Shown: piece after piece, positions 871 through 51,950 of the stretch | Position numbering within the stretch: the first letter of the stretch is position 1 | Layout of the letters: each line of letters starts with the position of its first letter | Source: a virus | Taxonomy: Duplodnaviria; Heunggongvirae; Uroviricota; Caudoviricetes | Strand: one strand, 5' to 3' | Length of the DNA stretch: 64,000 nucleotides | Virus record (IMG/VR): IMGVR_UViG_3300027808_002177 | Coordinates: 15,243 to 79,242 of that record | Position numbers and translations under genes: made by a program | Notes under the pieces: model-generated | What the model was told of the DNA's origin: nothing | Databases searched by the model: none | Seen by the model: only the letters and a program-made list of their open reading frames with translations

Positions 871-879
871 ATTTTTCCT

Positions 880-2034: not shown

Positions 2035-2035
2035 G

Positions 2036-2670: not shown

Positions 2671-2852
2671 GCAAGTTTGAATATGATTGCATCTTCTTCT
2701 TCGCCAAAGAAGTAGTCAATTTTAGCATTGTCGTATGTGTAGTACCCATCCTGATGAACATCGTTAGTAATGTAGCTGGGACAATTTTCTTTGGCCCAAT
2801 CAAGTGGCTCCCGGAATGGTCTAAATGGCAAAGTCACGTGAATCATGAACAA
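2661..2852 (-). CDS. small protein of C-terminal-motif family (ends ...EEEDAIIFKLAWS)
   Basis: 63-aa ORF with the shared tail. Confidence 0.45.
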   Translation of the reverse strand: MFMIHVTLPFRPFREPLDWAKENCPSYITNDVHQDGYYTYDNAKIDYFFGEEEDAIIFKLAWS

Positions 2853-3046
2853 GCAAGTTTAAACATCACAGCGTCATCTTTATTGGCAAAGCAATATGTA
2901 GAATTGTTTTCGTTAAAGCGCCAGTCATCTCGAAGTAAGTTATTCTTGAGCCAAATGATGCGATCATCGTTGGCTTCCATGTTCTCTACAGCCATTTGAA
3001 ACTGGTGTGGCCAAATCCGTTTGTTTAATACTCTCATACACCCCAC
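2843..3046 (-). CDS. small protein of C-terminal-motif family (ends ...FANKDDAVMFKLACS)
   Basis: 67-aa ORF with the shared tail. Confidence 0.45.
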   Translation of the reverse strand: MGCMRVLNKRIWPHQFQMAVENMEANDDRIIWLKNNLLRDDWRFNENNSTYCFANKDDAVMFKLACS

Positions 3047-3471
3047 CTTAATTTAGTCATAGCAAACATTTCTTGCGACACGTCAAACACATTGCGATGC
3101 AAGGCCCACCTGCTGTCGATATGACTGTACCATTCTTGATCTTCTACGCCGTTTTCACGAATCCAAATAGAAACTTCTTTGCGGCATGAAACAGTGTACC
3201 AAGGCACACCATCAACATCAGCAGTTGTTAGCACTTCAAACGGTGGTACCGGCGATAATGGCATGATGATTTCTTTGCAAAGGTTGTCAAGCATGACAGC
3301 AGTAAGCATACTCTTACCAGTGTTGCGACCAGATGCAAACGTCATCATTTCCCCACGTTTGATCCCACCATACATTTTGTTGAGCGTTTCTTTTTGCCAG
3401 CTCATTATTGGACCATTTACAAGTTCTGTAAATGTTTCAATGTCTAGGTCAAATTTTTCAGGTACAGCCAT
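3034..3471 (-). CDS. hypothetical protein with C-terminal domain paralogous to 1397..1744
   Basis: 145 aa. The C-terminal half aligns with the 1397..1744 product. The N-terminal 'SGRNTGKS' has the wrong spacing for a Walker A motif. Confidence 0.5.
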   Translation of the reverse strand: MAVPEKFDLDIETFTELVNGPIMSWQKETLNKMYGGIKRGEMMTFASGRNTGKSMLTAVMLDNLCKEIIMPLSPVPPFEVLTTADVDGVPWYTVSCRKEVSIWIRENGVEDQEWYSHIDSRWALHRNVFDVSQEMFAMTKLRWGV

Positions 3472-3472
3472 A

Positions 3473-3715
3473 TCAGGTCCATGTTAGCTTATACAGCATT
3501 ATAAACTGTTCTGCATCTTCACGCGACCTAAATTTCCAAGTATCGTAGCTGATCCTGGCGGCATTTGCGTTTTCTTCGGTCCATTTTAGGATAGCATCAA
3601 CTGCCTCAGTATCAACTATAGTACCGAACTCATAGTGATCCTGGTACGGATCTTTAAGAGCTACAACATGCCCCCAACCTTTTCGTAGTGAATAGTTTGG
3701 CTCAAGCCAGCTCAT
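3473..3715 (-). CDS. small protein of C-terminal-motif family (ends ...REDAEQFIMLYKLTWT)
   Basis: 80-aa ORF. Confidence 0.5.
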   Translation of the reverse strand: MSWLEPNYSLRKGWGHVVALKDPYQDHYEFGTIVDTEAVDAILKWTEENANAARISYDTWKFRSREDAEQFIMLYKLTWT

Positions 3716-3993
3716 TGGATGGCACCACCAAACCGTAACTTGGCTATAATAGCATCTTCTTTATTCTTAAAGCTGACTTGTGTTACTGTGTCCCATGAAC
3801 TACTGTTAACATCACTTACATCGCACGAGTGCATGATCCACAAGTCATGATCACCGTGGTACATTTTAAAGTAGTCGTACTCTGCTTGCGTAGTCATCAG
3901 TAGCGGGCCAATGTTTTCGCTGAGCCATTCGTACACATCTTCTTCAACTGCGTCGCCAATGAACAAATTATATTTTAACCACTTGTCAGACAT
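3712..3993 (-). CDS. small protein of C-terminal-motif family (ends ...FKNKEDAIIAKLRFGG...)
   Basis: The ORF-track start at 3996 is TTG. The ATG at 3993-3991 overlaps the upstream stop (ATGTCTGA). Confidence 0.5.
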   Translation of the reverse strand: MSDKWLKYNLFIGDAVEEDVYEWLSENIGPLLMTTQAEYDYFKMYHGDHDLWIMHSCDVSDVNSSSWDTVTQVSFKNKEDAIIAKLRFGGAIQ

Positions 3994-4285
3994 CAAAGTT
4001 CAGCATAAAATATGCTGCCTCATCTTTGCTTTTAATGGTCACAGTGACCATTGGATCACCAGAATTGAATCGAGGCGTGCAGTCAGCACCGGGGCAATGT
4101 TCTTCCATCCAGGAGATAAACTCATGATGGTCTTTGCTGTATACCCAGCAGTGCCAGCCTACAACTTCTTCTCGAAACTCTCGTTCTGGCTCTCCTTTTT
4201 TTAAAAGGATAGCAGGCACAGTGTGCCAACCATCTTCATATCGCCAATGATGTACACTGATTTTTTGTTTCATTACTGCATCCAC
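3986..4285 (-). CDS. small protein of C-terminal-motif family (ends ...IKSKDEAAYFMLNFDV)
   Basis: 99 aa. The C-terminal codons AAAGATGAGGCAGCA nearly match AAAGATGAGGCGGCA in gene 1119..1412. Confidence 0.5.
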   Translation of the reverse strand: MDAVMKQKISVHHWRYEDGWHTVPAILLKKGEPEREFREEVVGWHCWVYSKDHHEFISWMEEHCPGADCTPRFNSGDPMVTVTIKSKDEAAYFMLNFDV

Positions 4286-4563
4286 ATTTTTACCAAAGCA
4301 ATTGAATCAATTGTAACAAGAAGCAAATAGTTTGCCAGCATACCTACGCTACCGCGAGTCTTAGCAGCCCATGCAAAAATAGCACACTGAAATATAAACA
4401 GTGGGTACAGGATTAAGAAAGGTGGAGTTGGTACAGTCAGCATCATTGTAAATGCACAACCTATACTTAGGAACCAAGCAAGAATTTCAAGTACACAACG
4501 TACAGGATTTTCTTGCCAATCCGCTTGGATGTAATTGCCTACGCTTGCAAGTAGGCGAAGCAT
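4273..4563 (-). CDS. small integral membrane protein (2-3 TM)
   Basis: 96 aa, strongly hydrophobic (FLILYPLFIFQCAIFAWAA). Confidence 0.45.
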   Translation of the reverse strand: MLRLLASVGNYIQADWQENPVRCVLEILAWFLSIGCAFTMMLTVPTPPFLILYPLFIFQCAIFAWAAKTRGSVGMLANYLLLVTIDSIALVKMWMQ

Positions 4564-4814
4564 TACACTTTGTTGCCAGTTACTTCAAGGATCTCTTCCA
4601 TTGCTTCAAAGTCCGATTGGTCTTTGTCAAAGTCGCCTTTGAATGCTTTGGTAATGGCTTTGTTTAGTACTGCTGGTTTAATTTCCATTTCTTCAGCAAT
4701 AGCTGCAACTGTTTCTTTCAGGCCCACGCTAAGATCATCAATCTCACGCTTGACTTGAATCCCCTCTTGGATCACTCGTTTCAGTTTTGCAATTTGTTCT
4801 GGTGAAAAGCTCAT
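4563..4814 (-). CDS. hypothetical acidic protein (83 aa)
   Basis: Well-formed ORF, Lys/Glu-rich and helical-looking. Confidence 0.45.
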   Translation of the reverse strand: MSFSPEQIAKLKRVIQEGIQVKREIDDLSVGLKETVAAIAEEMEIKPAVLNKAITKAFKGDFDKDQSDFEAMEEILEVTGNKV

Positions 4815-4872
4815 ATAAATCTCCGTTAGTTAATGTCTTACCAAGTAAGTATACACGTTCCAACGCTGCTTG

Positions 4873-5640
4873 TCAAGAACTTTTTCGTTCGATATCTGAT
4901 TCTTCGCAACTAGTGCCAAATTGTATCTCAATGAGCCTGCACGGTTGATCAAAAGGATTAGACAACTGATGCCATGAGCCAGCAGGGATTGCTATATTGG
5001 CATGGGCCTCTAGTGTTAGTTGAGCCTCTTTATAGTTGATAACACACCTGCCTTCGCTTACGTGCCAATATTCAGACCTGTTTTCGTGACGTTGCATGCT
5101 CAAACTTTGTCCGGGCATGACAGTAAGTTCTTTTACTTTGGTGCCTGGCACTTCATGCAGTACTCTATAATAACCCCACAAGCGACGAGTCTTTGGGGCT
5201 TTCCATTCTTCGAGGATCCAAGAACTGGAATTGGCTTTGTTATCCCCACCTACGCCAAATTTAAACAAAATATTCTTAACACTCATTTCAGGAATATTCT
5301 CAGCAGTTCGGTCGCCACCATTAGCAAAGATGATTTCAGCATAAGAGTAACTTCGCTGTATAGTTTCTAATAGTTTAACTGCGCTACCGTCAGCATCATC
5401 AAATCCAACTACTTCGTCAACACACCGTAGTCCTTCAAGCACTGATTTGCGTTCTTCAAATGTCATAAACGGTCTGCCCTTTTTACGTTCAAGCCAAGCA
5501 TCAGAGTTCAAGCCAACTACTAACTTATCGCCATGCTCGCGAGCCGCTTGTAAATATTTTATGTGTCCCGAATGAACAGGATCAAACCCGCCAGTTGCAA
5601 TTACTATTTTCATATGATTATTTATTGGTGCATCCACCAT
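4873..5640 (-). CDS. bifunctional sugar-phosphate nucleotidyltransferase (cytidylyl/adenylyltransferase, HldE domain II-like) fused to a type II mannose-6-phosphate isomerase-like cupin
   Basis: N-terminus KIVIATGGFDPVHSGHIKYLQAAREHGDKLVVGLNSDAW carries the HxGH nucleotidyltransferase signature. C-terminus LSMQRHENRSEYWHVSEG carries the ManC/MPI type II cupin motif. The start may be the internal ATG at 5613. Confidence 0.75.
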   Translation of the reverse strand: MVDAPINNHMKIVIATGGFDPVHSGHIKYLQAAREHGDKLVVGLNSDAWLERKKGRPFMTFEERKSVLEGLRCVDEVVGFDDADGSAVKLLETIQRSYSYAEIIFANGGDRTAENIPEMSVKNILFKFGVGGDNKANSSSWILEEWKAPKTRRLWGYYRVLHEVPGTKVKELTVMPGQSLSMQRHENRSEYWHVSEGRCVINYKEAQLTLEAHANIAIPAGSWHQLSNPFDQPCRLIEIQFGTSCEESDIERKSS

Positions 5641-5663
5641 TGGTTTTTCAGAATAAATATCGT

Positions 5664-6590
5664 ATGCAAACTTTTACCAAAATCTTCAACACCAAATATC
5701 CTATTGCTTGTATGGCAATGAATCAGGTCTCAGATGTTCCACTGGCAATTGCTGTCCGAAACGCCGGCTGCTTGCCTAGCCTATCAATTTTTAATTATTA
5801 TGCCAAGACTGGAATTATTTCTCTTAGCTTGTTTGAAGCTGATCTCAAAAGATATTTAGATGCAGTCGGGGATACTTCAATTTTAATTAGCCTTAGCACC
5901 GAAAGCATATTAGACATACCAAACTTTTTAGAAATACTATTAACCTATCGCGTTGGGGCAGTTGAAATTATATTAGAAGATCAGCACATAGACTATGAAC
6001 GCCGCCGCAATGTGCTTTTGCCGCAGGCAATTTTTCGGCTGCGGTCAAATGGCATTATGGTGTTTACCAAGACATTACACGCAACTGATATAATTGATGA
6101 TACCGACGGCATTGTCCTTAAAGGTCCTGACGGCGCAGGGCGCGGCAATCTGACAGGCGAAACATTGTCACAATTATTTGATAAATTTACTGCTTGTTAC
6201 CCGGGCCAACATGTAATTACGTCAGGTGGTGTAGGTACAAGCGAGCAATTGAAATACTATGTAGATCGTGGAGCATTTGCTGTGGGCATTGGCACTATGT
6301 TTGCAGTTTCTACCGAAAGTAAAATTTCCACAGAATCAAAACTCAAATTGGTAGCTTCAAGTGCTTCTGATGTTAAGCGTTTAGATAACGGTAAGACACT
6401 GTCTGACAGTCAAAATGCCATTGTCTTTAACCAATACACAAATCAAGATAATCAGAATAATACCAGAAGCCTGGCAATGGGTGTACGTAGCCCAAGTCTT
6501 GGCCATGTGTTTATTGGCAAAGGGATTGAACACGCAAATGAAATCCTCACTTGCGAAGAAATTGTTCAACGATTGGTCAAAGACCTTTAA
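5664..6590 (+). CDS. nitronate monooxygenase / NPD (FabK-like) TIM-barrel FMN oxidoreductase family protein
   Basis: YPIACMAMNQVSDVPLAIAVRNAGCLPS and TSGGVGTSEQLKYYVDRGAFAVGIGTMF resemble the NMO/2-nitropropane dioxygenase signatures. The track ORF starts at TTG 5595. The first ATG is at 5664. Confidence 0.6.
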   Translation: MQTFTKIFNTKYPIACMAMNQVSDVPLAIAVRNAGCLPSLSIFNYYAKTGIISLSLFEADLKRYLDAVGDTSILISLSTESILDIPNFLEILLTYRVGAVEIILEDQHIDYERRRNVLLPQAIFRLRSNGIMVFTKTLHATDIIDDTDGIVLKGPDGAGRGNLTGETLSQLFDKFTACYPGQHVITSGGVGTSEQLKYYVDRGAFAVGIGTMFAVSTESKISTESKLKLVASSASDVKRLDNGKTLSDSQNAIVFNQYTNQDNQNNTRSLAMGVRSPSLGHVFIGKGIEHANEILTCEEIVQRLVKDL

Positions 6591-6736
6591 AGTCTACTCT
6601 GCGATAGAACACAATACTCTGGTGGACCACTAGAGGCAAACCTCAATGAATGCATAAATAATTCATAATACTATCTAACTACCTATACAGAAGTAGTAGT
6701 TATAGTGATTGATTAATTTAGGATTGGGGAAGCCGT

Positions 6737-7327
6737 ATGTTTAAGTTAATATCAGAGCCGCGCCCGCTACTGTATCAGCTGGAAATTGAAGTTCCTGATG
6801 GGTTGGAATTTGAACAGCTAGAATGGCAGGAAATACATATCACAGGCGCAATCAATAAAACAAAATTTAACCTTAGACAAACAGCCAGTGATATTGATCA
6901 TTTGCCTGTGATATCTAAATTTTGCCAGGATATACGAGAGTCTCAGAGCAAGCTCCTAGAGCACATGTGGGAAAATCCAAATTTTCAAACTGAGTGGGCT
7001 GGTTACACCTTGGAACAACTGAAATTAAACACAAGCCCATATTGTGAAGCATGTAAAGACTGGCCGGGATTTGACACTGGTATACATTTAGATAATCGTA
7101 AAACTGTTACCGCAGGTATGGTGTTCTTTAATCAAGGTGTAATAGAAGAAAAAAGTACAACATTTTACAGAGATGGTAATGGTAATTTTCCAATTATGAT
7201 GTCTTGTGCATTTGGGCAAGGATGGTACTCTGCTAACAATCCACACAGTTGGCATCAAGGTGCCAACAATTCTAATGATATTCGCTATAGTATAAAGTTT
7301 GGCCACCACTTAAACATGATTTATTGA
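6737..7327 (+). CDS. putative 2OG-Fe(II) oxygenase superfamily protein (PhyH-like)
   Basis: HxD (GIHLDN) followed by a distal His and Arg (HSWHQGANNSNDIRYSIKF). Preceded by GGGGAAG about 8 nt upstream. Confidence 0.4.
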   Translation: MFKLISEPRPLLYQLEIEVPDGLEFEQLEWQEIHITGAINKTKFNLRQTASDIDHLPVISKFCQDIRESQSKLLEHMWENPNFQTEWAGYTLEQLKLNTSPYCEACKDWPGFDTGIHLDNRKTVTAGMVFFNQGVIEEKSTTFYRDGNGNFPIMMSCAFGQGWYSANNPHSWHQGANNSNDIRYSIKFGHHLNMIY

Positions 7328-7344
7328 CACCTGTAAACAGCATA

Positions 7345-9696
7345 TTACTGCGCCAAGGACTTAACAAAAGTCCAAAATGTGCCGTTGTTGTATCCGGGTG
7401 TTGAATCAAACTTTTCTTTATTACGGTTTGCAATGTTCATTAGCTTATGAAACAAGTTAAATCGTTCGTTGTCTTCGAGTGAGTTGATACGTTGCAGTTC
7501 TTTGATAATTTTGTACATACGAGTGTTGGCATCATATTCTTGATCATAAGACTCATCAATGATGCCGTCAAATGTTTCAAATCCCATGCTTCGTAGAACA
7601 CGTAATGATTCTGCAGGACCTGCAATAATAAAAGGATGTCCGTGTGCAATAGCACGAAATGTTTTTTCGCTGATAAACACATCACCGTGTTCGTATGTAG
7701 TTTCTGCAATAACACTCAGCAATGCCTGTTCATAATGGTTGCTGACTTGTGGTCCATTTTGTGTTACATCATATTCGTCAATGGTCAACTGCTTGTCTAG
7801 TACTGGCAAGATTCTTGCCTTTACATCTGGGTGCAAGTACAGTGAGTTTTCTGCTACTTCTATTGCAGTTTTAATTACACCTGGGTACAGCTCTCCGCTT
7901 GGTACAAAGCTGACCATATTTCCGTCAACAAGATCGTGCAGGATCATTTCGCCTACCAAGTGGCAACGGTGTGCCTTGATAACACGATTATAACTTAAAA
8001 AGTTGGCTGTTTTGTTTTCATACGCATGATTGACTGCAATGTCTCTATCTACCCAATTATTGATTGAAACAAAATTTAACAGATTAATATCGTCTGTCGT
8101 TTTGTTAGCCAATGATAATGCTTGTCCTGTACTTTGTAATTCATTGGCATAGAAGTATTGGTCTTTTGTTAATTCAGGCCAAAATTTAGACAAACGTTCT
8201 TGCCACATAAATGCATGAGCAATCATACCTTCGTGTGGTGTGATAAACACAATCCGATCGTCAGGATTAAATTTACTGATACGAGCCCGCAATGAAACAA
8301 TGTAGTCTTGCGCCACCAAATCTTTGTTAACTGCTTCTACAGGTGCCAATGCAAAATATGTCATTGGTTTGGCCAAGTCAGAACTAAATTTAAACTGCGA
8401 ATACAACTCAACAAAGATGTTGCACTTGTTTACAGGATTTAAAATACGTCCATTGATAGTTGGCAAACTAAATTTGGGATTGCCATAGTGTACTACCTTG
8501 CAACCTGGAAACTCTTTAATTGTGCGCCACGGATCAACAAGAATACTACCGGGGGCAATGTCATAGTAAAATTCATCTGCCTTTACTTCAACTCCGGTCC
8601 CAGCATACGTGATAGCAGGATTGTGTGCCATTAGCACAACTGCTGGACCAGCAGGAACTGTATCATCGCCAGTGAGAGGATCTACGTAATACAACTCTAC
8701 ACCAGCATGTTCAACAAAGTGCCCTACCAACAAACTATAACTGCCAATTGTATAAGGAACATATGGCTTGTATGCTTTACCGTGAATCACAACCGGGAGG
8801 TTGTTTTCTTGTGCAAGTTTTACTAATTTACCTGCCATCGCCTGCGCTTGACTGTCGCGAGCACTCATGATAGCATGGAACATATCATAACCTAAATCCA
8901 ACTTGCCGCTTAACCAGCGTAGAGCAATGTTATCGCGTGGATGGCAAGCACCTGCGTCACCTAAGCCGGCTGTCAAATAGCGTGGCCCAGTAATACGCTG
9001 TGTGGCAGCTTTAAGCGCATCTGTTACCACATCTACGTTGATGTTGCCATTCTTTTCTGCTACGTCCTGAATCATGTTGACAAGACCAATCTTGGCTGAG
9101 ATGAATGTGTTGTAAAAAATCTTAATAGCTTCGGCTTCGTCCCATGTGCCTACGTTAACACGGGGTTCGTTCTGCATTAGCGGCTTGTAAAATTCAATTA
9201 GCTCTTGTGCATCGCCTGTTGTACTACCATCTTCTGTACCAATGATAAGACACTCTGGATTAACCATGTCCCACTTAACAGATCCCATAGCAATAAGATA
9301 TGGGTTGTAAATGAAACGTGCGTTAGTTAGGTAACCAATTAGTTGATCACGTACAGTACCGGGCAACACTGTTGAGATTAAAACAACTAGTTGATCTTGT
9401 GTCACATGCGGATTGATTTGTTGAAAAACTTTGATAACAGGTGTGTAATCAAAGTCACATGGCGTCATGTTGCTGATCGGAGTCTCTCCGCCGTATTGTG
9501 GATTGTGTGGAGTAGGTACTGCAACAAAAATAATGTCAGCACCTTTAACAGCTTCTTCAACGGAACCTTTGATGGCTACAGTCAGTGTTGGGTCTACAGT
9601 GTTGATATCATATCCGCACACATCGTAATGTTCAGCCATTACTTCGGCACATGGTAAGCCTAGCTTACCTAATCCAATCATTGCTACACGTTTCAT
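7345..9696 (-). CDS. UDP-sugar 6-dehydrogenase (UDP-glucose/GDP-mannose dehydrogenase family) fused to a C-terminal glycosyltransferase-like domain
   Basis: N-terminal Rossmann fold MIGLGKLGLP, followed by FVAVPTP and the catalytic-Cys box GDAGACHPRD. The roughly 350-aa C-terminal extension shares a domain with the 11143..12417 product (SEK...G.PFI.AGP..LRVLRSMGFETF..IIDESYD). Confidence 0.75.
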   Translation of the reverse strand: MKRVAMIGLGKLGLPCAEVMAEHYDVCGYDINTVDPTLTVAIKGSVEEAVKGADIIFVAVPTPHNPQYGGETPISNMTPCDFDYTPVIKVFQQINPHVTQDQLVVLISTVLPGTVRDQLIGYLTNARFIYNPYLIAMGSVKWDMVNPECLIIGTEDGSTTGDAQELIEFYKPLMQNEPRVNVGTWDEAEAIKIFYNTFISAKIGLVNMIQDVAEKNGNINVDVVTDALKAATQRITGPRYLTAGLGDAGACHPRDNIALRWLSGKLDLGYDMFHAIMSARDSQAQAMAGKLVKLAQENNLPVVIHGKAYKPYVPYTIGSYSLLVGHFVEHAGVELYYVDPLTGDDTVPAGPAVVLMAHNPAITYAGTGVEVKADEFYYDIAPGSILVDPWRTIKEFPGCKVVHYGNPKFSLPTINGRILNPVNKCNIFVELYSQFKFSSDLAKPMTYFALAPVEAVNKDLVAQDYIVSLRARISKFNPDDRIVFITPHEGMIAHAFMWQERLSKFWPELTKDQYFYANELQSTGQALSLANKTTDDINLLNFVSINNWVDRDIAVNHAYENKTANFLSYNRVIKAHRCHLVGEMILHDLVDGNMVSFVPSGELYPGVIKTAIEVAENSLYLHPDVKARILPVLDKQLTIDEYDVTQNGPQVSNHYEQALLSVIAETTYEHGDVFISEKTFRAIAHGHPFIIAGPAESLRVLRSMGFETFDGIIDESYDQEYDANTRMYKIIKELQRINSLEDNERFNLFHKLMNIANRNKEKFDSTPGYNNGTFWTFVKSLAQ

Positions 9697-11156
9697 GTTT
9701 CTTCTTTGTCTTTATTTGCTGCTTCTCGTGCAGCTTGCGACTCTTCGTATTCTCGCTTGCACTGGTCGTAGAAATATCCAATTTCTGAAAATACTGTTTT
9801 AAAGTCAGTTCCGTTACGACGATCGTGTTCTGTAATATACAAATAAAAGTCACGTCTACTTACCTTATTGGCCGTGCTGTCTTGCCATTCGGCTGAAGCA
9901 ATATTATACACACGTTGTAAATTGTCAACTTCGTGTGGATAAAATCCATCATGGTAATCAACATGTTGATATGTTGCAGTATTGTGTCGCATAAACTGAA
10001 TACAACGATCAAGTAATACCAGCATATAAGGATCTGCCAGTAACGAACTTAGGTAACGTGGATGACGTAGATACGGGAAGTCTAATCCAACCCCACGCAT
10101 GCCCGAATTATTGATACTAACACTTGGGGCTTGCCGCAGTGCCAACATATCACGTAGGAATGATTCAAAGCGTGGAATACTCAACAAGTTAAACGTCACC
10201 ATTACTGTAATGCTCAGCGCAGGATAACGTAGTGTAATGTCCCACAATGTACGATACCATTGTTTGTAATTTAGGCCAGTACGAATGTATTCGGCTTGCT
10301 TGCCCCAGGTGTCACATGAAGTAAAGATCTTTAAACTCTTTACCAAATTGTTTTCTTGGATGTAGTTGGCTTTTTCTAAAAACTCGTTTAGTAGTTTTTC
10401 ATCTACACCCAAATTGCTGTTGATGGCAAGATCGAGTTCGGGATTGGGGTTGGCAATAATCCAGTCTAATACCTTAAAGGTGTCTTTGGCCAGCAGCGGC
10501 TCCCCGCCAGTAATACGGAATACTTTTAGCTTGGGATATAGTGTAGGCCACCATTTCCAAAATGCTTCAATGTAAGGATTATGTTCCCTGTTGGGGATAG
10601 GCATGCGGCCTTGTTGCTCTAACTTAATAATGTCACGATCAACACGCCCACCATCAAGTAACACTGGGCCATAGCGTTTGGCCTCTTGCATGATTGTAGA
10701 ACTAATGTCTGGACTGCAATATGCACAACCAAAGTTGCATACGTTACTAAATGAAACTTCTACATAAGCAGGGGTAACATCTGCGTCCCAGGGCATCTGT
10801 GACGACGACTTTAAAAATGGTTGCCCCCAAACTAAGTCAGCACTTTTGAGAACACGATCGGAAAAGTGATGTCCGGGACTATCTTCAGCTTTCCAGCAGT
10901 AGTCGCATTCACTTGGACGTTCACCTTCCAGCATCTTTTTACGCTGTTCTTTTTTGAACTTGGTATTGTGCAGCGCACTTGGATTTGCAGTAATTTCCTC
11001 TACTGGAATATGATGTGTGGCTGGATGGTGGCACGAATGTGTCTGTCCTGTTGCAAGATGGATTGTAACTTGCTGCCATTTGGCAACGCAATAGCTACTG
11101 CTAACAGTGTCTAATTGTTGCTTTATCTTGTTCAAATGAATTTTAATTGGGTCCAC
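9693..11156 (-). CDS. radical SAM enzyme with His/Cys-rich N-terminal extension
   Basis: CNFGCAYC (CX3CX2C) plus the ITGGEPLL glycine-rich SAM motif. About 140 aa of N-terminal extension is rich in His and Cys (SCHHPATHH, ECDYCW). The start has an ATGA overlap with the upstream gene. Confidence 0.8.
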   Translation of the reverse strand: MDPIKIHLNKIKQQLDTVSSSYCVAKWQQVTIHLATGQTHSCHHPATHHIPVEEITANPSALHNTKFKKEQRKKMLEGERPSECDYCWKAEDSPGHHFSDRVLKSADLVWGQPFLKSSSQMPWDADVTPAYVEVSFSNVCNFGCAYCSPDISSTIMQEAKRYGPVLLDGGRVDRDIIKLEQQGRMPIPNREHNPYIEAFWKWWPTLYPKLKVFRITGGEPLLAKDTFKVLDWIIANPNPELDLAINSNLGVDEKLLNEFLEKANYIQENNLVKSLKIFTSCDTWGKQAEYIRTGLNYKQWYRTLWDITLRYPALSITVMVTFNLLSIPRFESFLRDMLALRQAPSVSINNSGMRGVGLDFPYLRHPRYLSSLLADPYMLVLLDRCIQFMRHNTATYQHVDYHDGFYPHEVDNLQRVYNIASAEWQDSTANKVSRRDFYLYITEHDRRNGTDFKTVFSEIGYFYDQCKREYEESQAAREAANKDKEET

Positions 11157-12417
11157 GTTTACCTTCTAATGTGCGTACTAAGTCACGAGCAACTGTTGCT
11201 TTTATCTTAGCCTGATCAATAACCAATTGTTGATTATATTTAAGTACTATTTGACATTGAGCCACTACTGCACCAAATTCCTCGTCAGTGATACTTATCA
11301 GTCGTTTCAATTCACGAGCTACCAGATTAGCACGAGCAATAGGCTCAAGCTCTTCATCGTATTCTTCGTTAATGTATGGAGCAAATGTACGAAACCCAAG
11401 TCGTCGTAAACCCCGTAAGTAATGTGGCCCACTTAGTACCAAAAATATTTGGCCAGCAGCCATTGGCTTCCAAATCTTCTCTGATGCAAATGCGCTGGTA
11501 GTGAAGCACAGTGTTTCTGTGACAAGATTTACAGGATGTTCGCTGTATAAGTCTGTATTAAAGTCCAGTGCATGATTGGTTTCAAAGTCTGTTCTGTCGG
11601 CTATTAGAGGTAGACGTTTATACAACGTCTGAAATGCATCTTCGTAACGATCTAAGAATCCTATTTGTAAATCTTTCAACTCGTCCCATAATCTACGTAA
11701 GTCCCATTGATCTTTAGCCCATCCTATGTCAGGCTCCACAAAGTCACGCGGCATACTGATTGTACCGTGCTCAATTAAATCTCTGCGTTCAAGTATAGTC
11801 ATCATCATAATACGATGATAGTGGGGCCTACGATTTAAACTCATATAACGCTTACGGGCAGTAGTCTGTGCAGTGGCCCTGAGTTGTCTACTTGCCCACA
11901 CTGCAAAGTATCCATAATATGCAGCAAGCATTGCTGGATGAATTCGATGTCGACTACACCATACTTGGTAGTTATCTTGTATGTTCAAATCGCCTGACAC
12001 ATATATTAATCTATCTTCTAATTTATGTTTGCAACTCCAGGTGTATAAGTCCCCAAACGCTTCTTCTCCAAAGCCTTCCATACTGTAATCAAGTACAATA
12101 CGACAAGTACTATCGCGCCAGGCTCGAAGTCTATTATGATCTGACTTAAACCATTCAGTAATCAGTTCAAGTTTTATCTTGTCCCATCCTCCGTGGAGTC
12201 CAATTACAACAACGCCATTAGAATTGTTTTTATAGTCAGGAAATGTTTTAACTACTACGTCTGACGCAAATTCAGGAAGTATGGTCAAATCAATTGCAGG
12301 CTGAACAGTAAAATGATCTATGTTGTCAGTGTCATTGGTAATAAACTGTTGTAGGTAGCTGTGCAATTCAAACGGATTGTCATTCTTGTGATCGCAGTAC
12401 CAAATCATTTCGCTCAT
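11143..12417 (-). CDS. hypothetical protein with C-terminal glycosyltransferase-like domain shared with 7345..9696
   Basis: The C-terminal roughly 200 aa (NRRPHYHRIMMMTILERRDL ... SEKIWKPMAAGQIFLVLSGPHYLRGLRRLGFRTFAPYINEEYDEE) aligns with the C-terminus of the dehydrogenase fusion. Confidence 0.5.
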   Translation of the reverse strand: MSEMIWYCDHKNDNPFELHSYLQQFITNDTDNIDHFTVQPAIDLTILPEFASDVVVKTFPDYKNNSNGVVVIGLHGGWDKIKLELITEWFKSDHNRLRAWRDSTCRIVLDYSMEGFGEEAFGDLYTWSCKHKLEDRLIYVSGDLNIQDNYQVWCSRHRIHPAMLAAYYGYFAVWASRQLRATAQTTARKRYMSLNRRPHYHRIMMMTILERRDLIEHGTISMPRDFVEPDIGWAKDQWDLRRLWDELKDLQIGFLDRYEDAFQTLYKRLPLIADRTDFETNHALDFNTDLYSEHPVNLVTETLCFTTSAFASEKIWKPMAAGQIFLVLSGPHYLRGLRRLGFRTFAPYINEEYDEELEPIARANLVARELKRLISITDEEFGAVVAQCQIVLKYNQQLVIDQAKIKATVARDLVRTLEGKRGPN

Positions 12418-12457
12418 ACTTTATTTATTATATGCGCTGTTAAAGAATTTGCGGCCA

Positions 12458-12482
12458 AGAAAAACCCCAACGTGCTTGGGTA
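12458..12482 (-). terminator. rho-independent terminator after endolysin gene
   Basis: The minus strand reads CCCAAGCACGTTGGG followed by GTTTTTCTT. Confidence 0.5.
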
Positions 12483-12518
12483 ATTAATCCGCAGAGGTTG
12501 GGGCCGTGTTAATATTAC

Positions 12519-13151
12519 TTAGTCTTCTAATGCGTGAAGTACTTCCAAAATGTGCTCGTAATGTTTTTTACGATCAGCAAGACCAATTGTACCACCGTTG
12601 ATTCGTTTAGTAACTGTGGTGATGTCACCTTTGTCAGCCCACTCGTTTAATCGACGTGTGTTCCAGAACCAACCTGCACTTAATACTGCAACTGGGTTTT
12701 CTGCTACCGAATCTGGATCAGTTAATAAGTCCATCTCTAATGCTTTACCGCATGCAGTATAGTTGTCCTTGCCAGTTAATTGAATAACACCGCGGCCGCG
12801 ATACTTGTAACCATCACCGGAACTTTCGGCTCCGTTGCCCATACGGCCACCATATACCTTATTAGCAATCTTTTCTGGCTTACGTGCATAAGGTACTGCT
12901 GAATCTTCAGTAGGGAAATACTTTTTAAATGTACCGTTCAAACCTTTGGCACTGTAGTTCAAGTTTTCTTGTGTGGCTGCAAAGTTGCCGGACTCGTGTG
13001 CAGTTTGTGCAATAAACATGGCCATGCGTTCTGGCGTGTCAATTTCAAAGTGTTCAAATGTTTCATTTAAACCTTCTACAAACTTTTCCAAGTTGCTGCG
13101 TTTAGCTTCTGGTAAACATTCAACTAAAATATCAATATTCAATTCAATCAT
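12519..13151 (-). CDS. glycoside hydrolase family 19 (chitinase-like) endolysin
   Basis: FIAQTAHESGNF ... YKYRGRGVIQLTGKDNY are the canonical GH19 catalytic motifs. 210 aa with no targeting leader. Confidence 0.85.
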   Translation of the reverse strand: MIELNIDILVECLPEAKRSNLEKFVEGLNETFEHFEIDTPERMAMFIAQTAHESGNFAATQENLNYSAKGLNGTFKKYFPTEDSAVPYARKPEKIANKVYGGRMGNGAESSGDGYKYRGRGVIQLTGKDNYTACGKALEMDLLTDPDSVAENPVAVLSAGWFWNTRRLNEWADKGDITTVTKRINGGTIGLADRKKHYEHILEVLHALED

Positions 13152-13163
13152 ACTAATCTCCTG

Positions 13164-14849
13164 TTATTCGCCTTTTTTGACTGCGCGAGCAATCTCATGT
13201 GCCTTGTTGATTGTGCTTTTCTTTAATGGTGGTTTATCACCTGTACTTTTCATAGCTTGGCTCATGCCGATCGCATATGGATTTTTATCAGCTTCTCGAA
13301 TGCCAACGTTGATTTTAGTTTTACGCTGGAAGTCTCTAAGGATTTCAAGTTCTTTCGGACTTATCTTTCCAGCATGATACATTTTGTTTACTAATGTTTG
13401 AATCTCATTTGGAATGCCTGCTGGATTTCTACCAGCTACAGCAGGACCGCGATTGACAGCAATTGAATCGTCAGGTTGATTAAAGAAGTCACGCATGGAT
13501 GCTAAACTGGCTTCCTCAATATCATCTTCCGACACACCTTGTCCCTTTAAGCCACGAGTTGCTGCATTTAAACTGCTTAAACTTGCACTGCGAGTTGCGT
13601 CGGGATTCATAACCAAGTCGACACTGAATGCTCGACCGTTTTTGTAAAAATGCAATTCGTTGCTGGTTGTTTTTAAATTTTCAGCACCATACTGACGTAA
13701 TAGCTTTAGCGCATCATTCAATGGTAAAGTTTCTGCTACACCCTCGTCTATGTCTTCTTCAGGTTTGCCATACAGGTATGTGATAGTTCCCATTGGGCTA
13801 ATTACACGGTCAACATCATAACCTTCATCGTCAAAACGGGCCAATAGCTTTTTAGCACCAACAACTTCATAACGGTCTGGTGTGTATTCTTGCACTAGGT
13901 CATCACCGTCCATGACTCTCCAGATGTTGTTGCGTTGATAGTAGAATTTATCTCTGCCATCATTGGAGCCTTCAACAACGCCTTGCTCGGGCAATTGGCC
14001 TTTAGGGCCTGGCATGGGTTTTGTTTTAATTCGTTTCTTAATAAGCTCTTGTTTGAATGCGTCGGGTCCATTAGCAGATAGTATATCATCAAAGTCTCGG
14101 GTAGCAACCCGCAACTTCTCCATGTCTTTGTTGGACCATTGTTGATTTTGACCTTGGTCCTCCGCTACACCTTGCTGTAATTCTTCTGCTGGCCAGCTAA
14201 TATAGCTCTTACCATGCTCGTCGCCTGCTTGCACCACAAATACGCCGCCGTTGTCATAGCCTTCATCTTGTCCAATTTCCCAACCTGCAGCCAACAATGT
14301 TTTTTCTGCTTTTGGATCTTCATCACCGTTCCACCACTGTGCTGCCAACTGCTTTAGCATGCGTTCATCGAAGCCATCGTCGCCGCTATCACCGCTGCCT
14401 GCTGGAGCAAATTCTACTAGACCTTGCTGTCTACGCTCTGTCAAACTTTCAGTTACTTTACGAACTTCAACTGCGGCAGCACGAGCCTGCTGTTGTGGTA
14501 CTTTAACGTTGTAAGTTTTACCACGATAATCAAATGTTGGCAAACCTTTAGCAGACGCAGTCAAGTGTGCCATTGCAAACTCTTCAGCATTATCATCACC
14601 GCCCAGCTTATCGCTAAAGAAGTCCCAAATGCCGTCGGCCATTTTCATGCCCAGCGTTGCGCCCTGATGTGCCATTGCAGCCGCCATTGCAATACTACCA
14701 ATGGGACCAAATACTGCTCCGAGAATGTGTCCACCAGCGCCACTGAGTGCGCCCATTGCTGCACCGGCTGCTAATTTAACACCTGCAGGTGCTGCTTCAA
14801 CTTTGATATTGAGTTGTGCGCCCGTGTCGCCTAAATCTGTGAATTTCAT
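13164..14849 (-). CDS. hypothetical large protein (561 aa), Gly/Ala-rich N-terminus, probable virion protein
   Basis: Long ORF. N-terminal GAAMGALSGAGGHILGAVFGPIGSIAMAAAMA is glycine-zipper-like. No enzymatic motif was recognised. Confidence 0.5.
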   Translation of the reverse strand: MKFTDLGDTGAQLNIKVEAAPAGVKLAAGAAMGALSGAGGHILGAVFGPIGSIAMAAAMAHQGATLGMKMADGIWDFFSDKLGGDDNAEEFAMAHLTASAKGLPTFDYRGKTYNVKVPQQQARAAAVEVRKVTESLTERRQQGLVEFAPAGSGDSGDDGFDERMLKQLAAQWWNGDEDPKAEKTLLAAGWEIGQDEGYDNGGVFVVQAGDEHGKSYISWPAEELQQGVAEDQGQNQQWSNKDMEKLRVATRDFDDILSANGPDAFKQELIKKRIKTKPMPGPKGQLPEQGVVEGSNDGRDKFYYQRNNIWRVMDGDDLVQEYTPDRYEVVGAKKLLARFDDEGYDVDRVISPMGTITYLYGKPEEDIDEGVAETLPLNDALKLLRQYGAENLKTTSNELHFYKNGRAFSVDLVMNPDATRSASLSSLNAATRGLKGQGVSEDDIEEASLASMRDFFNQPDDSIAVNRGPAVAGRNPAGIPNEIQTLVNKMYHAGKISPKELEILRDFQRKTKINVGIREADKNPYAIGMSQAMKSTGDKPPLKKSTINKAHEIARAVKKGE

Positions 14850-14878
14850 AAATTATGATTCCTTATTAAATGTATTTA

Positions 14879-16369
14879 TTACTGTGCCAGTAATTTGATT
14901 ACATATTGATCAATCAGTGATCGTCCTCGATTGTATTGTTCAGCAGTAGTCCACAAATTATTATTTTCTTTAAGAAAGTCTTCGTGGGTATAGCCAATTT
15001 GGCGCAACTGCATAATTTTCCAACTACCATGCTTTGCATTATATGGATCAGTCATTGCTGATAGAGTTGTGCTGGCAAATTCACCAGCAGTTAGGTTGGT
15101 CCAAAGATCATTTTTCCAGGAGAATTTGCCTGTAAAAGTGTAGCCATAATCCTTTGCATTGCGTTCAAATTCACTTGCATTTTTGACTCCGCTTGCACTT
15201 AAACCTAATGTGTGCCATGATATATTGTACAAGTCATTGTCATTAAACCAATTTGCAGTGTCTACAATGCTATCCGCAGTATCTCCGGGCAGTCCAACAA
15301 TGAAACTCAAAGTTTGAAATACTTGCTTATTCCAAATATCGTGATATAGTTTAGGGAGGAATTCGCGAGCCCCTTTTCCACTCCAGCCTTTTCCAATGAC
15401 ATTGGACGCATGCTCTCCCAACGTTTCAATCCCATGAAAGCATGAAAACAGTCCTGTTTCTGCCAACATGTACGGCACATCAGGAAACCTATGTAATAAG
15501 TCGGCTCGCAAATAGGAAGTCCAATTGATCTTAAAAGGTAACGATGTGACCATTTTGTGCCATTCCCTCATTTTGTATTCGGTATCGTTAAATGTATCAC
15601 AAATTACATAGTAATTAGTAGTGCCCCACTTTTCATAATTATGTACCATCTCCTGCCGTACTAACTCAAAATCTCTGAGATAGTCAAGTTTACCTCTTCC
15701 CAATAACAAGTGATTACAAAACTTGCATTTAAAAATACAACCTCTACTAATTTCAATTGGTAGTGTTTCATTGGGCATAATAGCATCATGTTCTGTAAAC
15801 TTAAAGGCATCAGTCTCAATGTTAAATCTAACGGTGAGCGGCGCTGCGTATTGTTTGATTATTGTTTTATATGGGCCAGTGGGTGCAACGCCTGCGATAG
15901 TCCAATTTGGTTCTTTACCAATTCCTTTTAAATGATTCAATACGTCAACAAACGTATCTTCCCCATATTGCTGTATAACAGCGTAGGGTCGTTTAACGTA
16001 TTCTACACCAGTTGCTAATGTAACAAGATTGGTTGCGTAGCCACCAAAAATTAATTTAACATTGGGAAACTGCTCGGATATTTCATTTAGCACTGTAATC
16101 AAGTGTGCTGGTAACATTTGTACATTGCGAGGCCGACTTGGATCTTGCATGAATGTAGTGCTAATTCCAATAACTAAAGTTTCATTTGTAACATACTTTA
16201 ACAAGCAAGCGCGAAGCTGTTCTTCGCTTAGAAACATTAGATGATCTATTATTTGAGTATCGTAACCAGCTGTTCTTGCATAGTGTGCAATTTTATATGC
16301 GCCCAATGTTCTATAAGGCGAGATTTTGCCAAAATCTGCTGGGCCGCTGTTTAAAAGTATAACATCCAT
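14879..16369 (-). CDS. class B radical SAM enzyme (B12-binding domain + radical SAM)
   Basis: The N-terminal B12-binding-like domain (VILLNSGP...LGAYKIAHYARTAGYDTQIIDH) precedes SRGCIFKCKFC (CX3CX2C). Confidence 0.8.
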   Translation of the reverse strand: MDVILLNSGPADFGKISPYRTLGAYKIAHYARTAGYDTQIIDHLMFLSEEQLRACLLKYVTNETLVIGISTTFMQDPSRPRNVQMLPAHLITVLNEISEQFPNVKLIFGGYATNLVTLATGVEYVKRPYAVIQQYGEDTFVDVLNHLKGIGKEPNWTIAGVAPTGPYKTIIKQYAAPLTVRFNIETDAFKFTEHDAIMPNETLPIEISRGCIFKCKFCNHLLLGRGKLDYLRDFELVRQEMVHNYEKWGTTNYYVICDTFNDTEYKMREWHKMVTSLPFKINWTSYLRADLLHRFPDVPYMLAETGLFSCFHGIETLGEHASNVIGKGWSGKGAREFLPKLYHDIWNKQVFQTLSFIVGLPGDTADSIVDTANWFNDNDLYNISWHTLGLSASGVKNASEFERNAKDYGYTFTGKFSWKNDLWTNLTAGEFASTTLSAMTDPYNAKHGSWKIMQLRQIGYTHEDFLKENNNLWTTAEQYNRGRSLIDQYVIKLLAQ

Positions 16370-16398: not shown

Positions 16399-16425
16399 GA
16401 AATTGCCGCAATTTGCGGCAATTTC
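16399..16425 (-). terminator. strong palindromic terminator downstream of the 1493-aa gene
   Basis: GAAATTGCCGCAAtTTGCGGCAATTTC is a perfect 12-bp-arm hairpin. The minus strand then reads UCUUUGACUU. Confidence 0.55.
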
Positions 16426-22226: not shown

Positions 22227-22276
22227 AGATATATTTATTGTTTTTGCACAATAACCTTCGCTCTATTTACCGTTTC

Positions 22277-51904: not shown

Positions 51905-51950
51905 ATTGATATTTATGTCCTTGAAATCAAGAGTGTAACCTAAAATTATG

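Follow-up and report, generated by a model that had tools for sequence, protein, structure and literature searches.

Clusters of genes for glycan chemistry are known from the hypervariable regions of pelagimyophages and T4-like cyanophages, where gp156-164 of HTVC008M and gp212-228 of Synechococcus phage Bellamy form LPS/glycan accessory clusters, and rfaE-like nucleotidyltransferases also occur in cyanophages. Cassettes of glycosyltransferase, UGDH, rfaE and radical SAM genes have already been described for pelagimyophages, with O-chain modification proposed as their role, and the hypervariable regions have been reported to vary by their radical SAM cassettes (PMC7029224). As many as 12 radical SAM genes have been recorded in one T4-like marine genome (PMC5332604), so that an earlier view of the locus considered here, according to which two radical SAM enzymes in one phage sugar module would be unusual, does not hold.

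The DNA analysed is a stretch of 64,000 nucleotides from a virus (the window), which carries a block of sugar-related genes on both strands. This block is a real cassette and an uncharacterised variant of the phage sugar cassettes already described. Its source is tentatively taken to be a large T4-like myophage from an aquatic habitat, akin to the pelagimyophages, and the block itself, equally tentatively, to be a cytoplasmic glycosylation cassette. A cyclase gene of the window shares 41% identity with those of Melnitz and HTVC008M, and the window has curli genes too, which places it in the same phage group. All nine ORFs of the block were found at the positions given in a preliminary description, which had interpreted the genes as sugar and glycan enzymes; this interpretation has been borne out, and the individual enzyme domains were recovered with the exception of a 2OG-Fe oxygenase, which stays at the level of a motif. 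The features are as follows.

4873..5640, minus strand: nucleotidyltransferase (HldE domain II / TagD-like) fused to a type II phosphomannose-isomerase cupin (NT-cupin), from Pfam CTP_transf_like and MannoseP_isomer
5595..6590 (ORF; probable start 5664), plus strand: NMO-like FMN TIM-barrel oxidoreductase, facultative, from Pfam NMO
6737..7327, plus strand: ORF196, possible 2OG-Fe(II) oxygenase, facultative, from an HxD..H..R motif only
7345..9696, minus strand: nucleotide-sugar 6-dehydrogenase (UGDH) fused to a GT-B domain, from Pfam, PHROG and paralogy
7345-8466, minus strand: GT-B part of the fusion, residues about 411-783, from paralogy to the 424-aa GT-B
8467-9696, minus strand: UGDH part of the fusion, residues 1-410, from Pfam, PHROG and the Bellamy UGDH
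9693..11156, minus strand: 'N-terminal twitch' radical SAM enzyme, 487 aa, from NF033640 N_Twi_rSAM
11143..12417, minus strand: GT-B fold glycosyltransferase of a Pfam-less family (GT424), 424 aa, from fold superposition
12422..12428, minus strand: ATAAATA box, 4 nt upstream of the GT424 ATG
12519..13151, minus strand: GH19 endolysin, from Pfam Glyco_hydro_19 (53 bits) and phrog_181 endolysin (282 bits)
13164..14849, minus strand: 561-aa low-complexity protein with an N-terminal Gly/Ala-rich hydrophobic stretch, clustering with ORF435
14879..16369, minus strand: class-B-like (B12-type) radical SAM enzyme, 496 aa, facultative mobile cassette, from Pfam Radical_SAM and CX3CX2C
16399..16425, minus strand: hairpin with a 12-bp stem followed by a T-run, between a 1493-aa gene and the B12-type gene

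The conserved core comprises GT424, the twitch enzyme, the UGDH-GT-B fusion and the NT-cupin, whose gene is the last of the block. Overlaps of 14 nt and 4 nt, the latter between the twitch stop and the UGDH-GT-B start, join the first three genes, which suggests that they may be translationally coupled. The window's gene order is repeated in at least 11 related contigs, so the clustering is not due to chance. Among the relatives L003-L005 and L013-L021, the conserved order is GH19 endolysin, GT-B, twitch enzyme, a variable middle and NT-cupin, and the order of the core genes is held down to 40% identity. The variable middle is either the UGDH-GT-B fusion, seen in 6 loci, or an SDR epimerase with MT21 and a GT-B paralogue, a nucleotide-sugar-modifying enzyme being always paired with a GT-B paralogue. 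The genes for the B12-type enzyme, the NMO-like protein and ORF196, in turn, are facultative cassettes, gained and lost among near-identical relatives. Linkage of the core genes in related phages, chosen beforehand as the test of the proposed module, therefore holds, and the notion of a single sugar pathway stands as far as the glycan enzymes and their linked core are concerned, but not as one fixed pathway, since these three genes are optional.

The NT-cupin was called as an ORF of 255 residues, although its start is more probably the ATG at 5613, giving 246 aa. Its N-terminal domain is PF01467 CTP_transf_like (57 bits), with the HxGH motif in GGFDPVHSGH, and residues 151-252 match the PF01050 MannoseP_isomer cupin with 79.8 bits against a cutoff of 23.6. 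For the nucleotidyltransferase domain only the superfamily model TIGR00125 passes (58 vs 27.7). Every equivalog cutoff is missed, with TIGR02199 (HldE domain II / RfaE) at 87.9 bits against 181.5, and the protein therefore fails as an HldE/RfaE heptose-1-phosphate adenylyltransferase at that level. ManC/AlgA, the bifunctional GDP-mannose pyrophosphorylase/PMI, resembles it in joining a C-terminal type II PMI cupin to a nucleotidyltransferase, but has an NTP_transferase fold where the window's protein has the HIGH-motif cytidylyl/adenylyl-transferase fold. The corresponding model TIGR01479 is 467 positions long and reaches 72.5 bits against a cutoff of 373, so that a true ManC-type bifunctional GMP/PMI was likewise rejected. 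Orthologues of the NT-cupin, 52-77% identical, close the module in 11 related loci.

In the fusion protein, which phrog_9148 matches with 301 bits, the N-terminal NAD-binding domain PF03721 (62 bits) and the central domain PF00984 (56 bits) of the UGDH part both exceed their cutoffs, and a Cys is present in the motif GACHPRD. No match to the C-terminal UDP-binding domain PF03720 was found in the UGDH part, and TIGR03026 scores 144 bits, under its cutoff of 189.8. Residues 1-410 are 59% identical to the Bellamy UGDH and 47% to that of HTVC008M. By sequence, the window's enzyme is a divergent viral subfamily of the UDP-glucose/GDP-mannose 6-dehydrogenases. In the remaining C-terminal region of about 370 aa, the last 90 or so residues are paralogous to GT424 (E 2e-13).

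GT424 itself has no match in Pfam, PHROG or NCBIfam, and none by sequence in the PDB at E<=10, but its two Rossmann-like domains superpose on known GT-B enzymes. The glycosyltransferases of the window are predicted to be soluble GT-B proteins. The family is so far confined to viruses and virus-like contigs, with structural relatives in uncultured Caudovirales and a mimivirus, and no homologue of GT424 occurs in 50,697 cultured-phage records. Its profile matches 81 proteins in total and is found in 45 of 88 viral or metagenomic loci with a twitch gene; after dereplication it is present in 13 of the 25 twitch groups that are fully flanked. Only 6 of 77 genome loci contain the family, and the three of these with gene maps inspected look phage-like. 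In viral loci the twitch gene usually lies immediately upstream of a gene of this family: the cluster used for the neighbour counts, which comprises the GT-B family together with free UGDH genes, is placed most often directly after the twitch gene (56 of its 175 members at +1) and shares its direction in 167 of 175 cases.

The twitch gene is the best-conserved member of the module and belongs to a large family, which numbers no fewer than 8000 protein clusters and occurs on 591 or more IMG/VR contigs. NF033640 matches residues 19-462 of the 487 with 301.3 bits against a curated NCBIfam cutoff of 170. The CX3CX2C motif (C140/C144/C147) and four further cysteines (C23, C42, C84 and C87) are invariant in 35 sequences, the latter four making up a putative auxiliary Fe-S cluster site. 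By sequence, the only match to a solved structure is a 20-residue stretch of MoaA. Structural comparison gave BlsE 12.8, SuiB 12.1, MoaA 12.1 and SkfB 11.8, neighbours which do not discriminate sugar-modifying from peptide-modifying or other functions. BlsE (cytosylglucuronate decarboxylase), BtrN, DesII and AprD4 share with the twitch enzyme a radical SAM core plus an extra Cys-rich element, but this element is C-terminal in enzymes of their type and N-terminal here; BlsE is moreover only 13% identical, with a small margin over SuiB, MoaA and SkfB, and most twitch loci lack UGDH. Since UGDH joins the twitch gene in just 6 of 25 dereplicated loci, uronic acid cannot be the general substrate of the enzyme. 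Bacterial relatives are found mainly in polysaccharide loci of Bdellovibrionota, and in GTDB genomes the gene has as neighbours those for GT2, GT4, carbamoyltransferase and ABC-2/ABC_tran exporters. Together with the viral GT-B adjacency, this setting supports a probable role of the twitch enzyme in glycan biosynthesis. The core pair of twitch enzyme and virus-specific GT family is common in aquatic viruses. Sugar cassettes of this sort are already known in such phages; the core pair of this one is uncharacterised.

The profiles proposed for the two radical SAM enzymes and their neighbours (UGDH, CTP_transf_like, MannoseP_isomer and Radical_SAM) were matched, with the exception of the B12-binding domain PF02310, which has no match in the window's 496-aa protein and is recorded for some of its homologues of about 50% identity. 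This protein passes PF04055 Radical_SAM (32.5 bits vs 29.5) and has an invariant CX3CX2C motif (C211/C215/C218). Several NCBIfam models of B12-radical SAM enzymes match it from residue 20 or so, all under cutoff, the PhpK-family model covering residues 27-466 (E 7e-21, 74 vs a cutoff of 600). It therefore resembles the cobalamin-dependent methylases PhpK, TokK, CysS and GenK in model alignment, in CX3CX2C and in the PF02310 of its homologues, but differs in scores that lie far under cutoff; profile comparison with the structures of TokK and CysS gave no significant match (E 0.4-0.95). From its sequence it may be described as a class-B-like radical SAM enzyme with putative cobalamin binding. 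No homologue of the gene occurs in the 50,697 cultured-phage records. The gene is present in L014 but missing from L013 and L015; the twitch genes of the latter two share 93-95% identity with that of the window.

The two plus-strand genes are also optional. The NMO-like gene probably starts at ATG 5664, giving 308 aa, the length also given by gene callers; Pfam NMO matches with 43.1 bits against 28, over residues 170-330 in the C-terminal half only. The gene is present in L003 and L013-L016 and missing from L004 and L017-L021, and no homologue was found in cultured phages. ORF196, found only in L015 among the relatives compared, has no Pfam match even at E<=1 and none in the PDB, and 2 of its 41 relatives match PF13640 weakly (E>=0.005). 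Alignment by hhalign with five HTVC008M genes annotated as 2OG-Fe(II) oxygenases gave a probability of 14%, with the motifs in register. Across the 41 sequences H117, H173 and R183 never vary and D119 is kept in at least 90%, so the HxD...H triad and Arg behind the earlier assignment are conserved, while a Pfam or PDB match to known members was not found; a putative 2OG oxygenase is a guess from this motif.

Two further ORFs of the block are not sugar enzymes. The GH19 endolysin is 70-92% identical in all lineage relatives and always lies directly upstream of GT424. The 561-aa protein, non-enzymatic and situated between the endolysin and the B12-type gene, was passed over in the preliminary description; it has no family match in Pfam, PHROG or NCBIfam, retains its C-terminal 38 residues in L003 and L012, and is part of the backbone rather than of the sugar chemistry. 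The hairpin beyond the B12-type gene is likely a transcription-unit boundary. ATAAATA also precedes ATGs at 5613(-), as ATAAATA-N5-ATG, 5664(+), 22226(-) and 51904(-). The genes with this element at their start include those for the NT-cupin, NMO, GT424 and ORF435. By analogy, it may be a box like the T4 late promoter, although the window has a single copy of the exact T4 box TATAAATA, which does not exceed chance expectation.

A working scheme can be proposed for the cassette. The NT-cupin would supply an activated manno-configured sugar, its PMI-type cupin performing an aldose-ketose isomerisation and its HldE/TagD-type domain the nucleotidylation of a sugar-1-phosphate, with mutase or kinase steps provided by the host. 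The UGDH half of the fusion would convert a UDP-hexose to a uronic acid, to be transferred by the fused GT-B half, and the free GT-B would attach a second residue. The twitch enzyme would take a hydrogen atom from a sugar carbon and, with its second Cys4 site, perform a redox-type tailoring; candidate steps are an oxidation, an epimerisation or, in the manner of BlsE, the decarboxylation of the uronic acid. The optional members, through which the product could vary between strains, would be the NMO-like reductase, ORF196 and the B12-type enzyme, perhaps a C-methylase.

No flippase, polymerase or exporter gene was found among the window genes scanned, and the acceptor must therefore be accessible from the cytoplasm. 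A phage-encoded virion or virion-associated protein is slightly favoured over a host lipid-linked glycan. This preference draws on the rarity of the GT-B family in genome loci (6 of 77) and its Caudovirales and mimivirus relatives, on the position of the twitch block, which in at least 42 of 88 loci, and likewise in the cultured Ralstonia phage RsoM2USA, comes after tail-fibre-like genes of the same strand, and on the late-promoter-like boxes. In this window no recognisable tail fibres adjoin the block, its neighbours being low-complexity proteins without an assigned family. A bolder reading, which we regard as improbable, is that the twitch enzyme works with the Pfam-less GT-B in a system of 'radical glycosylation' carried by viruses and decorating fibres or virion-associated proteins with a radical-altered sugar. 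If so, the sugar might be a uronic acid or heptose that has been epimerised, oxidised, decarboxylated or C-methylated, swappable supply and tailoring cassettes would create strain-level surface diversity, and predatory Bdellovibrionota would use the same radical SAM chemistry on their own surface polysaccharides.

It is possible, though somewhat unlikely, that the same chemistry acts at the cytoplasmic face on a lipid-linked glycan of the host envelope (LPS core, O-chain or capsule precursor), the remodelled surface blocking superinfection or the re-adsorption of progeny to debris. This is the reading already proposed for the pelagimyophage glycosyltransferase, UGDH and rfaE genes (PMC7029224). 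UGDH, HldE-like and PMI-like proteins are classic supply enzymes for O-antigen and core, bacterial proteins related to the twitch enzyme are encoded in polysaccharide loci of the ABC-transporter type, and a phage without an exporter of its own would depend on that of its host. However, it would be odd for enzymes that work on intermediates of bacterial glycans to be nearly absent from bacterial loci, as this GT-B family is, in many phages the block runs in the same direction as the fibre genes, and a late surface change has little value during a lytic cycle. The genes scanned include no Gtr-type or Wzx/Wzy-type membrane protein, and none of the GtrABC components (flippase GtrA, bactoprenol glucosyltransferase GtrB and serotype-specific membrane GT) was detected in the module or the other window proteins scanned.

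Less probable still is that no single pathway exists, and that a hypervariable island has gathered independent cassettes, with the radical SAM, NMO-like and ORF196 proteins acting on substrates that have nothing to do with one another, for instance lipids, small metabolites or proteins, the neighbouring low-complexity ones among them. The turnover of the facultative genes among close relatives fits this reading, as does the B12-type gene shifting to another slot in L003 and L012. The endolysin, the 561-aa protein and terminator-like hairpins stand between that gene and the GT genes, peptide-modifying enzymes are near the top of the twitch structural matches, RiPP C-methylase and lipid B12-radical SAM models weakly match the 496-aa protein, and the window otherwise carries a mixed accessory set (TauD, nitroreductase, papain-like protease, SPFH and LuxR). 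Against it stand the overlapping core genes with their deeply conserved order, the twitch/GT-B adjacency in dozens of unrelated viral contigs, and the B12-type homologues themselves, which adjoin SDR epimerase and methyltransferase genes in L011 and lie within 8 kb of a twitch gene in L010.

Hypermodification of DNA, with sugars including uronic acid placed on modified bases for restriction evasion as in Bacillus phage SP-15, is highly improbable: SP-15 DNA contains a uronic acid derivative, its UGDH-annotated gene is 25% identical to the window's UGDH part and a cytoplasmic acceptor agrees with the absence of an exporter, but no base-hydroxymethylase, DNA kinase or other DNA-modification partner occurs in the module or the roughly 40 window proteins scanned (64 kb of genome), the GT424 fold resembles GT4-type enzymes more than DNA glucosyltransferases (T4 AGT and BGT being mid-list matches), and the bacterial twitch relatives lie in exporter-linked polysaccharide loci.

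Virus-encoded glycosylation of virions is known for the chlorovirus capsid, the mimivirus fibrils and the capsid and tail of mycobacteriophages. These systems resemble the cassette favoured here, one acting on phage proteins, in combining soluble viral glycosyltransferases with nucleotide-sugar enzymes and no exporter; to our knowledge, they include no radical SAM enzyme, and no aquatic T4-like phage has been reported to have glycosylated virions. With respect to the closest relatives, the UGDH of HTVC008M and Bellamy is accompanied by NadE-like, carbamoyltransferase, methyltransferase and ordinary GT genes, whereas that of the window shares one polypeptide with a novel GT-B domain and is coupled with a twitch radical SAM enzyme.

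All open reading frames named in the preliminary description of the sugar gene block (window positions 4873-16369) lie where it had placed them, although it missed a 561-aa ORF between the endolysin and B12-type genes. By position, the genes of the block and the two upstream of it are:

4873-5640, minus strand: NT-cupin, nucleotidyltransferase with PMI cupin
5595-6590, plus strand: NMO-like protein
6737-7327, plus strand: ORF196, putative 2OG-Fe oxygenase
7345-9696, minus strand: UGDH-GT-B fusion, 783 aa
9693-11156, minus strand: twitch radical SAM enzyme, 487 aa
11143-12417, minus strand: GT424, GT-B glycosyltransferase, 424 aa
12519-13151, minus strand: GH19 endolysin, 210 aa
13164-14849, minus strand: ORF561, charged low-complexity protein without family matches, 561 aa
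14879-16369, minus strand: B12-type, class-B-like radical SAM enzyme, 496 aa
16441-20922, minus strand: charged low-complexity protein without family matches, 1493 aa
20919-22226, minus strand: ORF435, charged low-complexity protein without family matches, 435 aa

Matches in Pfam, PHROG or NCBIfam upheld the calls on the NT-cupin protein (a cytidylyl/adenylyl-transferase-like domain joined to a type II PMI cupin), the NMO-like protein, the GH19 endolysin, the two radical SAM proteins and the 783-aa protein, whose N-terminal half is UGDH-like, and membership of the GT-B fold was found for the GT-like calls. The 487-aa protein scores 301 bits (cutoff 170) and clearly belongs to the 'N-terminal twitch' radical SAM family NF033640. 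Several B12-radical SAM models align with the 496-aa protein, called B12-type, over the greater part of its length, all with scores under their cutoffs; a B12-binding Pfam match was recorded only in its homologues of about 50% identity. ORF196, described as a putative 2OG-Fe oxygenase, gave no profile match, but an HxD..H..R signature is invariant in its family and faint links to 2OG oxygenases have been detected. Equivalog-level cutoffs for the UGDH subfamily, HldE and ManC were not reached by the window proteins, and PDB sequence and profile searches with GT424, both radical SAM enzymes and ORF196 returned nothing usable. Against cultured phages, megablast of the whole 11.5-kb interval gave no match, nor did tblastn with the B12-type gene, ORF196, the NMO-like gene, GT424 or ORF435, while the sole tblastn match of the 1493-aa protein was 60 residues in Vibrio phages. 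A defence or anti-defence role was rejected, PADLOC having given mere generic radical SAM similarity, and the sulfatase-maturase or glycyl-radical-activase role in JGI automatic names was dropped because sulfatase and glycyl-radical enzyme genes are absent nearby.

GT424 overlaps the twitch gene by 14 nt, and the latter overlaps the UGDH-GT-B gene by 4 nt, which suggests that the three form a single translationally coupled unit. The plus-strand NMO-like gene and ORF196 separate the UGDH fusion from the NT-cupin gene. Between the 1493-aa and B12-type genes, a hairpin with a perfect 12-bp stem (GAAATTGCCGCA/AAT/TGCGGCAATTTC) and a T-run (16399-16425, minus strand) is probably an intrinsic terminator or RNA processing site; a smaller hairpin lies 3' of the endolysin gene. 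Five genes carry an ATAAATA box 4-5 nt before the ATG:

5619-5625, minus strand: upstream of the NT-cupin ATG at 5613
5653-5659, plus strand: upstream of the NMO-like ATG at 5664
12422-12428, minus strand: upstream of the GT424 ATG at 12417
22232-22238, minus strand: upstream of the ORF435 ATG at 22226
51910-51916, minus strand: upstream of the TauD-like ATG at 51904

In 200 Markov simulations, counting the motif with an ORF of at least 60 aa, the mean was 0.07 and the maximum 1. The element is kept in six related loci at ORF435 homologues, in L014 at the NT-cupin homologue, in L003 at the NMO gene, and in L013 and L015 at unassigned 252-aa ORFs that are probably NT-cupin. It resembles the T4 late promoter, and its position would give transcripts starting at or near the AUG, i.e., leaderless ones; the same position points to M10 as the genuine start of NT-cupin. 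The window has a single copy of the exact T4 late box TATAAATA, not above chance, and sigma-70-like sites show no enrichment. The top sigma-70-like match in the scanned region (4848-4876, minus strand; TTGACA-17-TATACT, 11/12) overlaps the NT-cupin stop codon and points toward small ORFs at 239-4814. This site may mark the end of the sugar block and the start of another transcription unit.

Eleven related contigs share a backbone order of ORF435, 1493-like, 561-like, GH19, GT-B, twitch, a variable middle and NT-cupin. The middle has three forms: the UGDH-GT-B fusion, an unfused UGDH, or a GT-B paralogue accompanied by an SDR epimerase and a Methyltransf_21 protein. Of the module enzymes, twitch is conserved best (63-95% identity), with GT424 orthologues ranging down to about 40%. 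The B12-type gene is present in L014, absent in L013 and L015, whose twitch enzymes are 93-95% identical to that of the window, and located in another slot in L003 and L012; among the compared relatives ORF196 occurs in L015 only, and the NMO-like gene is restricted to closer relatives. This pattern of presence and absence indicates that the interval consists of a conserved four-gene core with facultative cassettes. Of the single linked glycan module proposed in the preliminary description, the glycan chemistry and a non-random gene linkage stand, while its unity was overstated. Close pelagimyophages have been reported to differ by radical SAM cassettes (PMC7029224), in agreement with this arrangement, so that the rarity attributed to two radical SAM genes in such phages was also exaggerated.

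The 435-, 1493- and 561-aa proteins form a conserved backbone surrounding the endolysin. Gly/Ala-rich hydrophobic stretches occur close to the N-terminus of the two larger ones, a linker rich in Pro and Thr occurs in the 1493-aa protein, ORF561 falls in one cluster with ORF435, and the C-terminal 38 residues of ORF561 show 82% identity in L003 and L012. These proteins may be part of the virion, be injected or serve as glycan acceptors.

The twitch family is very large: at least 7989 clusters match at E<=0.001, many of them with some 48% identity (about 50% across the family), and it occurs in at least 591 contigs or stretches in IMG/VR. ORFs were called and clustered in 88 twitch-containing viral or metagenomic loci, 45 of which hold the GT-B family at about 1.8 copies per locus (counted with domain-specific queries; single-linkage clustering joins free UGDH genes to GT-B via the fusion protein). 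The commonest place of the GT-B-holding cluster is immediately downstream of the twitch gene, in the same direction. Of 25 dereplicated, fully flanked groups, 13 have GT-B, 6 have UGDH, 4 have NT-cupin and 3 have the B12-type gene. In many loci co-directional tail-fibre-like genes precede the twitch block, which is accompanied by further families with only DUF matches or none in Pfam.

In GTDB, about 59 of the 77 best twitch loci (L093-L169) are titled as Bdellovibrionota lineages, which are predatory. Several hold tandem twitch paralogues, with a maximum of seven (L145), and the neighbours include GT2 and GT4 genes, interleaved with the twitch genes, as well as carbamoyltransferase genes and adjacent ABC-2/ABC_tran exporter genes. 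These neighbourhoods constitute the strongest evidence that the twitch enzyme would act on glycans. A Pfam-less 312-aa family adjoins the twitch gene in 16 GTDB loci. The GT-B family occurs in just 6 of the 77, and the three mapped (L131, L139 and L151) look phage-like; its BFVD relatives belong to uncultured Caudovirales and a mimivirus. No functional study was found in the literature on NF033640, phage twitch radical SAM enzymes, Bdellovibrio radical SAM glycans or radical-SAM fibre glycosylation.

The B12-type family counts over 1000 homologues in environmental sequences, and none in cultured phages. Two paralogues, 43-50% identical to that of the window, lie at 7929-11491 of L011, a 187-kb ENA contig, and downstream of them come an SDR epimerase gene (2.6 kb away) and a multi-methyltransferase gene (about 4 kb away); this contig was judged to resemble a giant virus from its wide gene spacing and its SIR2, dual-specificity phosphatase and HNH genes. 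The sole cultured phage with a full-length twitch homologue (38% identical) is the Ralstonia jumbo phage RsoM2USA, where genes 347-358 lie at 208333-227733. Its genes 355 to 347 are a conserved block of, in this order, fibre-like, c6, c4, c4, x, c2, twitch, c2 and c7 (c-numbers being unnamed protein clusters from the present analysis), and gene 358 is GT-B-like; all are annotated as hypothetical. The gene arrangement of this related block differs from that of the window. RsoM2USA is a tractable model for the twitch system.

All but two of the large ORFs in the window lie on the minus strand. A CHASE2/guanylate-cyclase gene (25148-27199, minus strand) is 41% identical to its counterpart in Methylophilales phage Melnitz and 40% to the one in Pelagibacter phage HTVC008M, and the latter phage likewise has the following two genes:

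30688-31632, minus strand: curlin-repeat gene
33742-34575, minus strand: CsgG curli-secretion gene

From these matches, the window belongs to a large aquatic T4-like myophage related to pelagimyophages. Judged from sequence, the cyclase and curli genes put it in the variable region between the replication and structural modules of these phages. JGI metagenome contigs 28-53 kb long carry genes identical to those of the module. No tRNAs were found in the window, and an Rfam scan of its whole length gave no families, hence no cobalamin or SAM riboswitch. A 403-aa protein (37722-38933, minus strand), which may be a virion-associated lysin, ends in a second GH19 domain separate from the endolysin of the module. 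A single-strand run of mixed accessory genes (40125-63905, minus strand) encodes SPFH/Band 7, papain-like cysteine protease, LuxR-type regulator, TauD-family dioxygenase, nitroreductase and endonuclease proteins, together with:

60419-61990, minus strand: tail-fibre-like protein

In the proposed pathway, NT-cupin would provide an NDP-activated manno-type sugar and UGDH a uronic acid, which the fused GT-B would transfer; the free GT-B would attach a further residue, with the twitch enzyme performing a radical tailoring step. Since no exporter or flippase genes were found among the module and window genes scanned, the acceptor must be cytoplasmic. Phage proteins are tentatively favoured in this role, because the GT-B family is nearly confined to viruses and virus-like contigs, the blocks are often co-directional with fibre genes and late-promoter-like boxes are present. 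Modification of host envelope glycans, already proposed in print (PMC7029224), is an almost equally likely alternative, consistent with the O-antigen-like supply enzymes and the bacterial contexts of the twitch family. Unrelated substrates for the facultative genes, or even for the radical SAM enzymes, are rather unlikely, and DNA is a highly improbable acceptor.

Solving the twitch/GT-B chemistry would extend the known radical SAM reactions by a new one acting on carbohydrates and would decide whether these phages glycosylate themselves or their hosts, which matters for host range, for superinfection and for the arms races between viruses and hosts in ocean and lakes. For about twenty years sugar clusters have been known from the large myophages that infect aquatic bacterioplankton and, to our knowledge, not one product or target has been demonstrated. 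The problem is here reduced to a compact, recurring unit that lends itself to experiment, a strongly conserved radical SAM enzyme followed by a virus-specific GT-B. The module is an uncharacterised variant within an already known class of phage accessory clusters. The 'LPS gene' clusters of pelagimyophages and cyanomyophages are the closest described, sharing UGDH and rfaE-like genes with it, whereas the UGDH-GT-B fusion, the twitch radical SAM/GT-B pair and the NT-cupin fusion, ManC-like but differently built, set the module apart from them.
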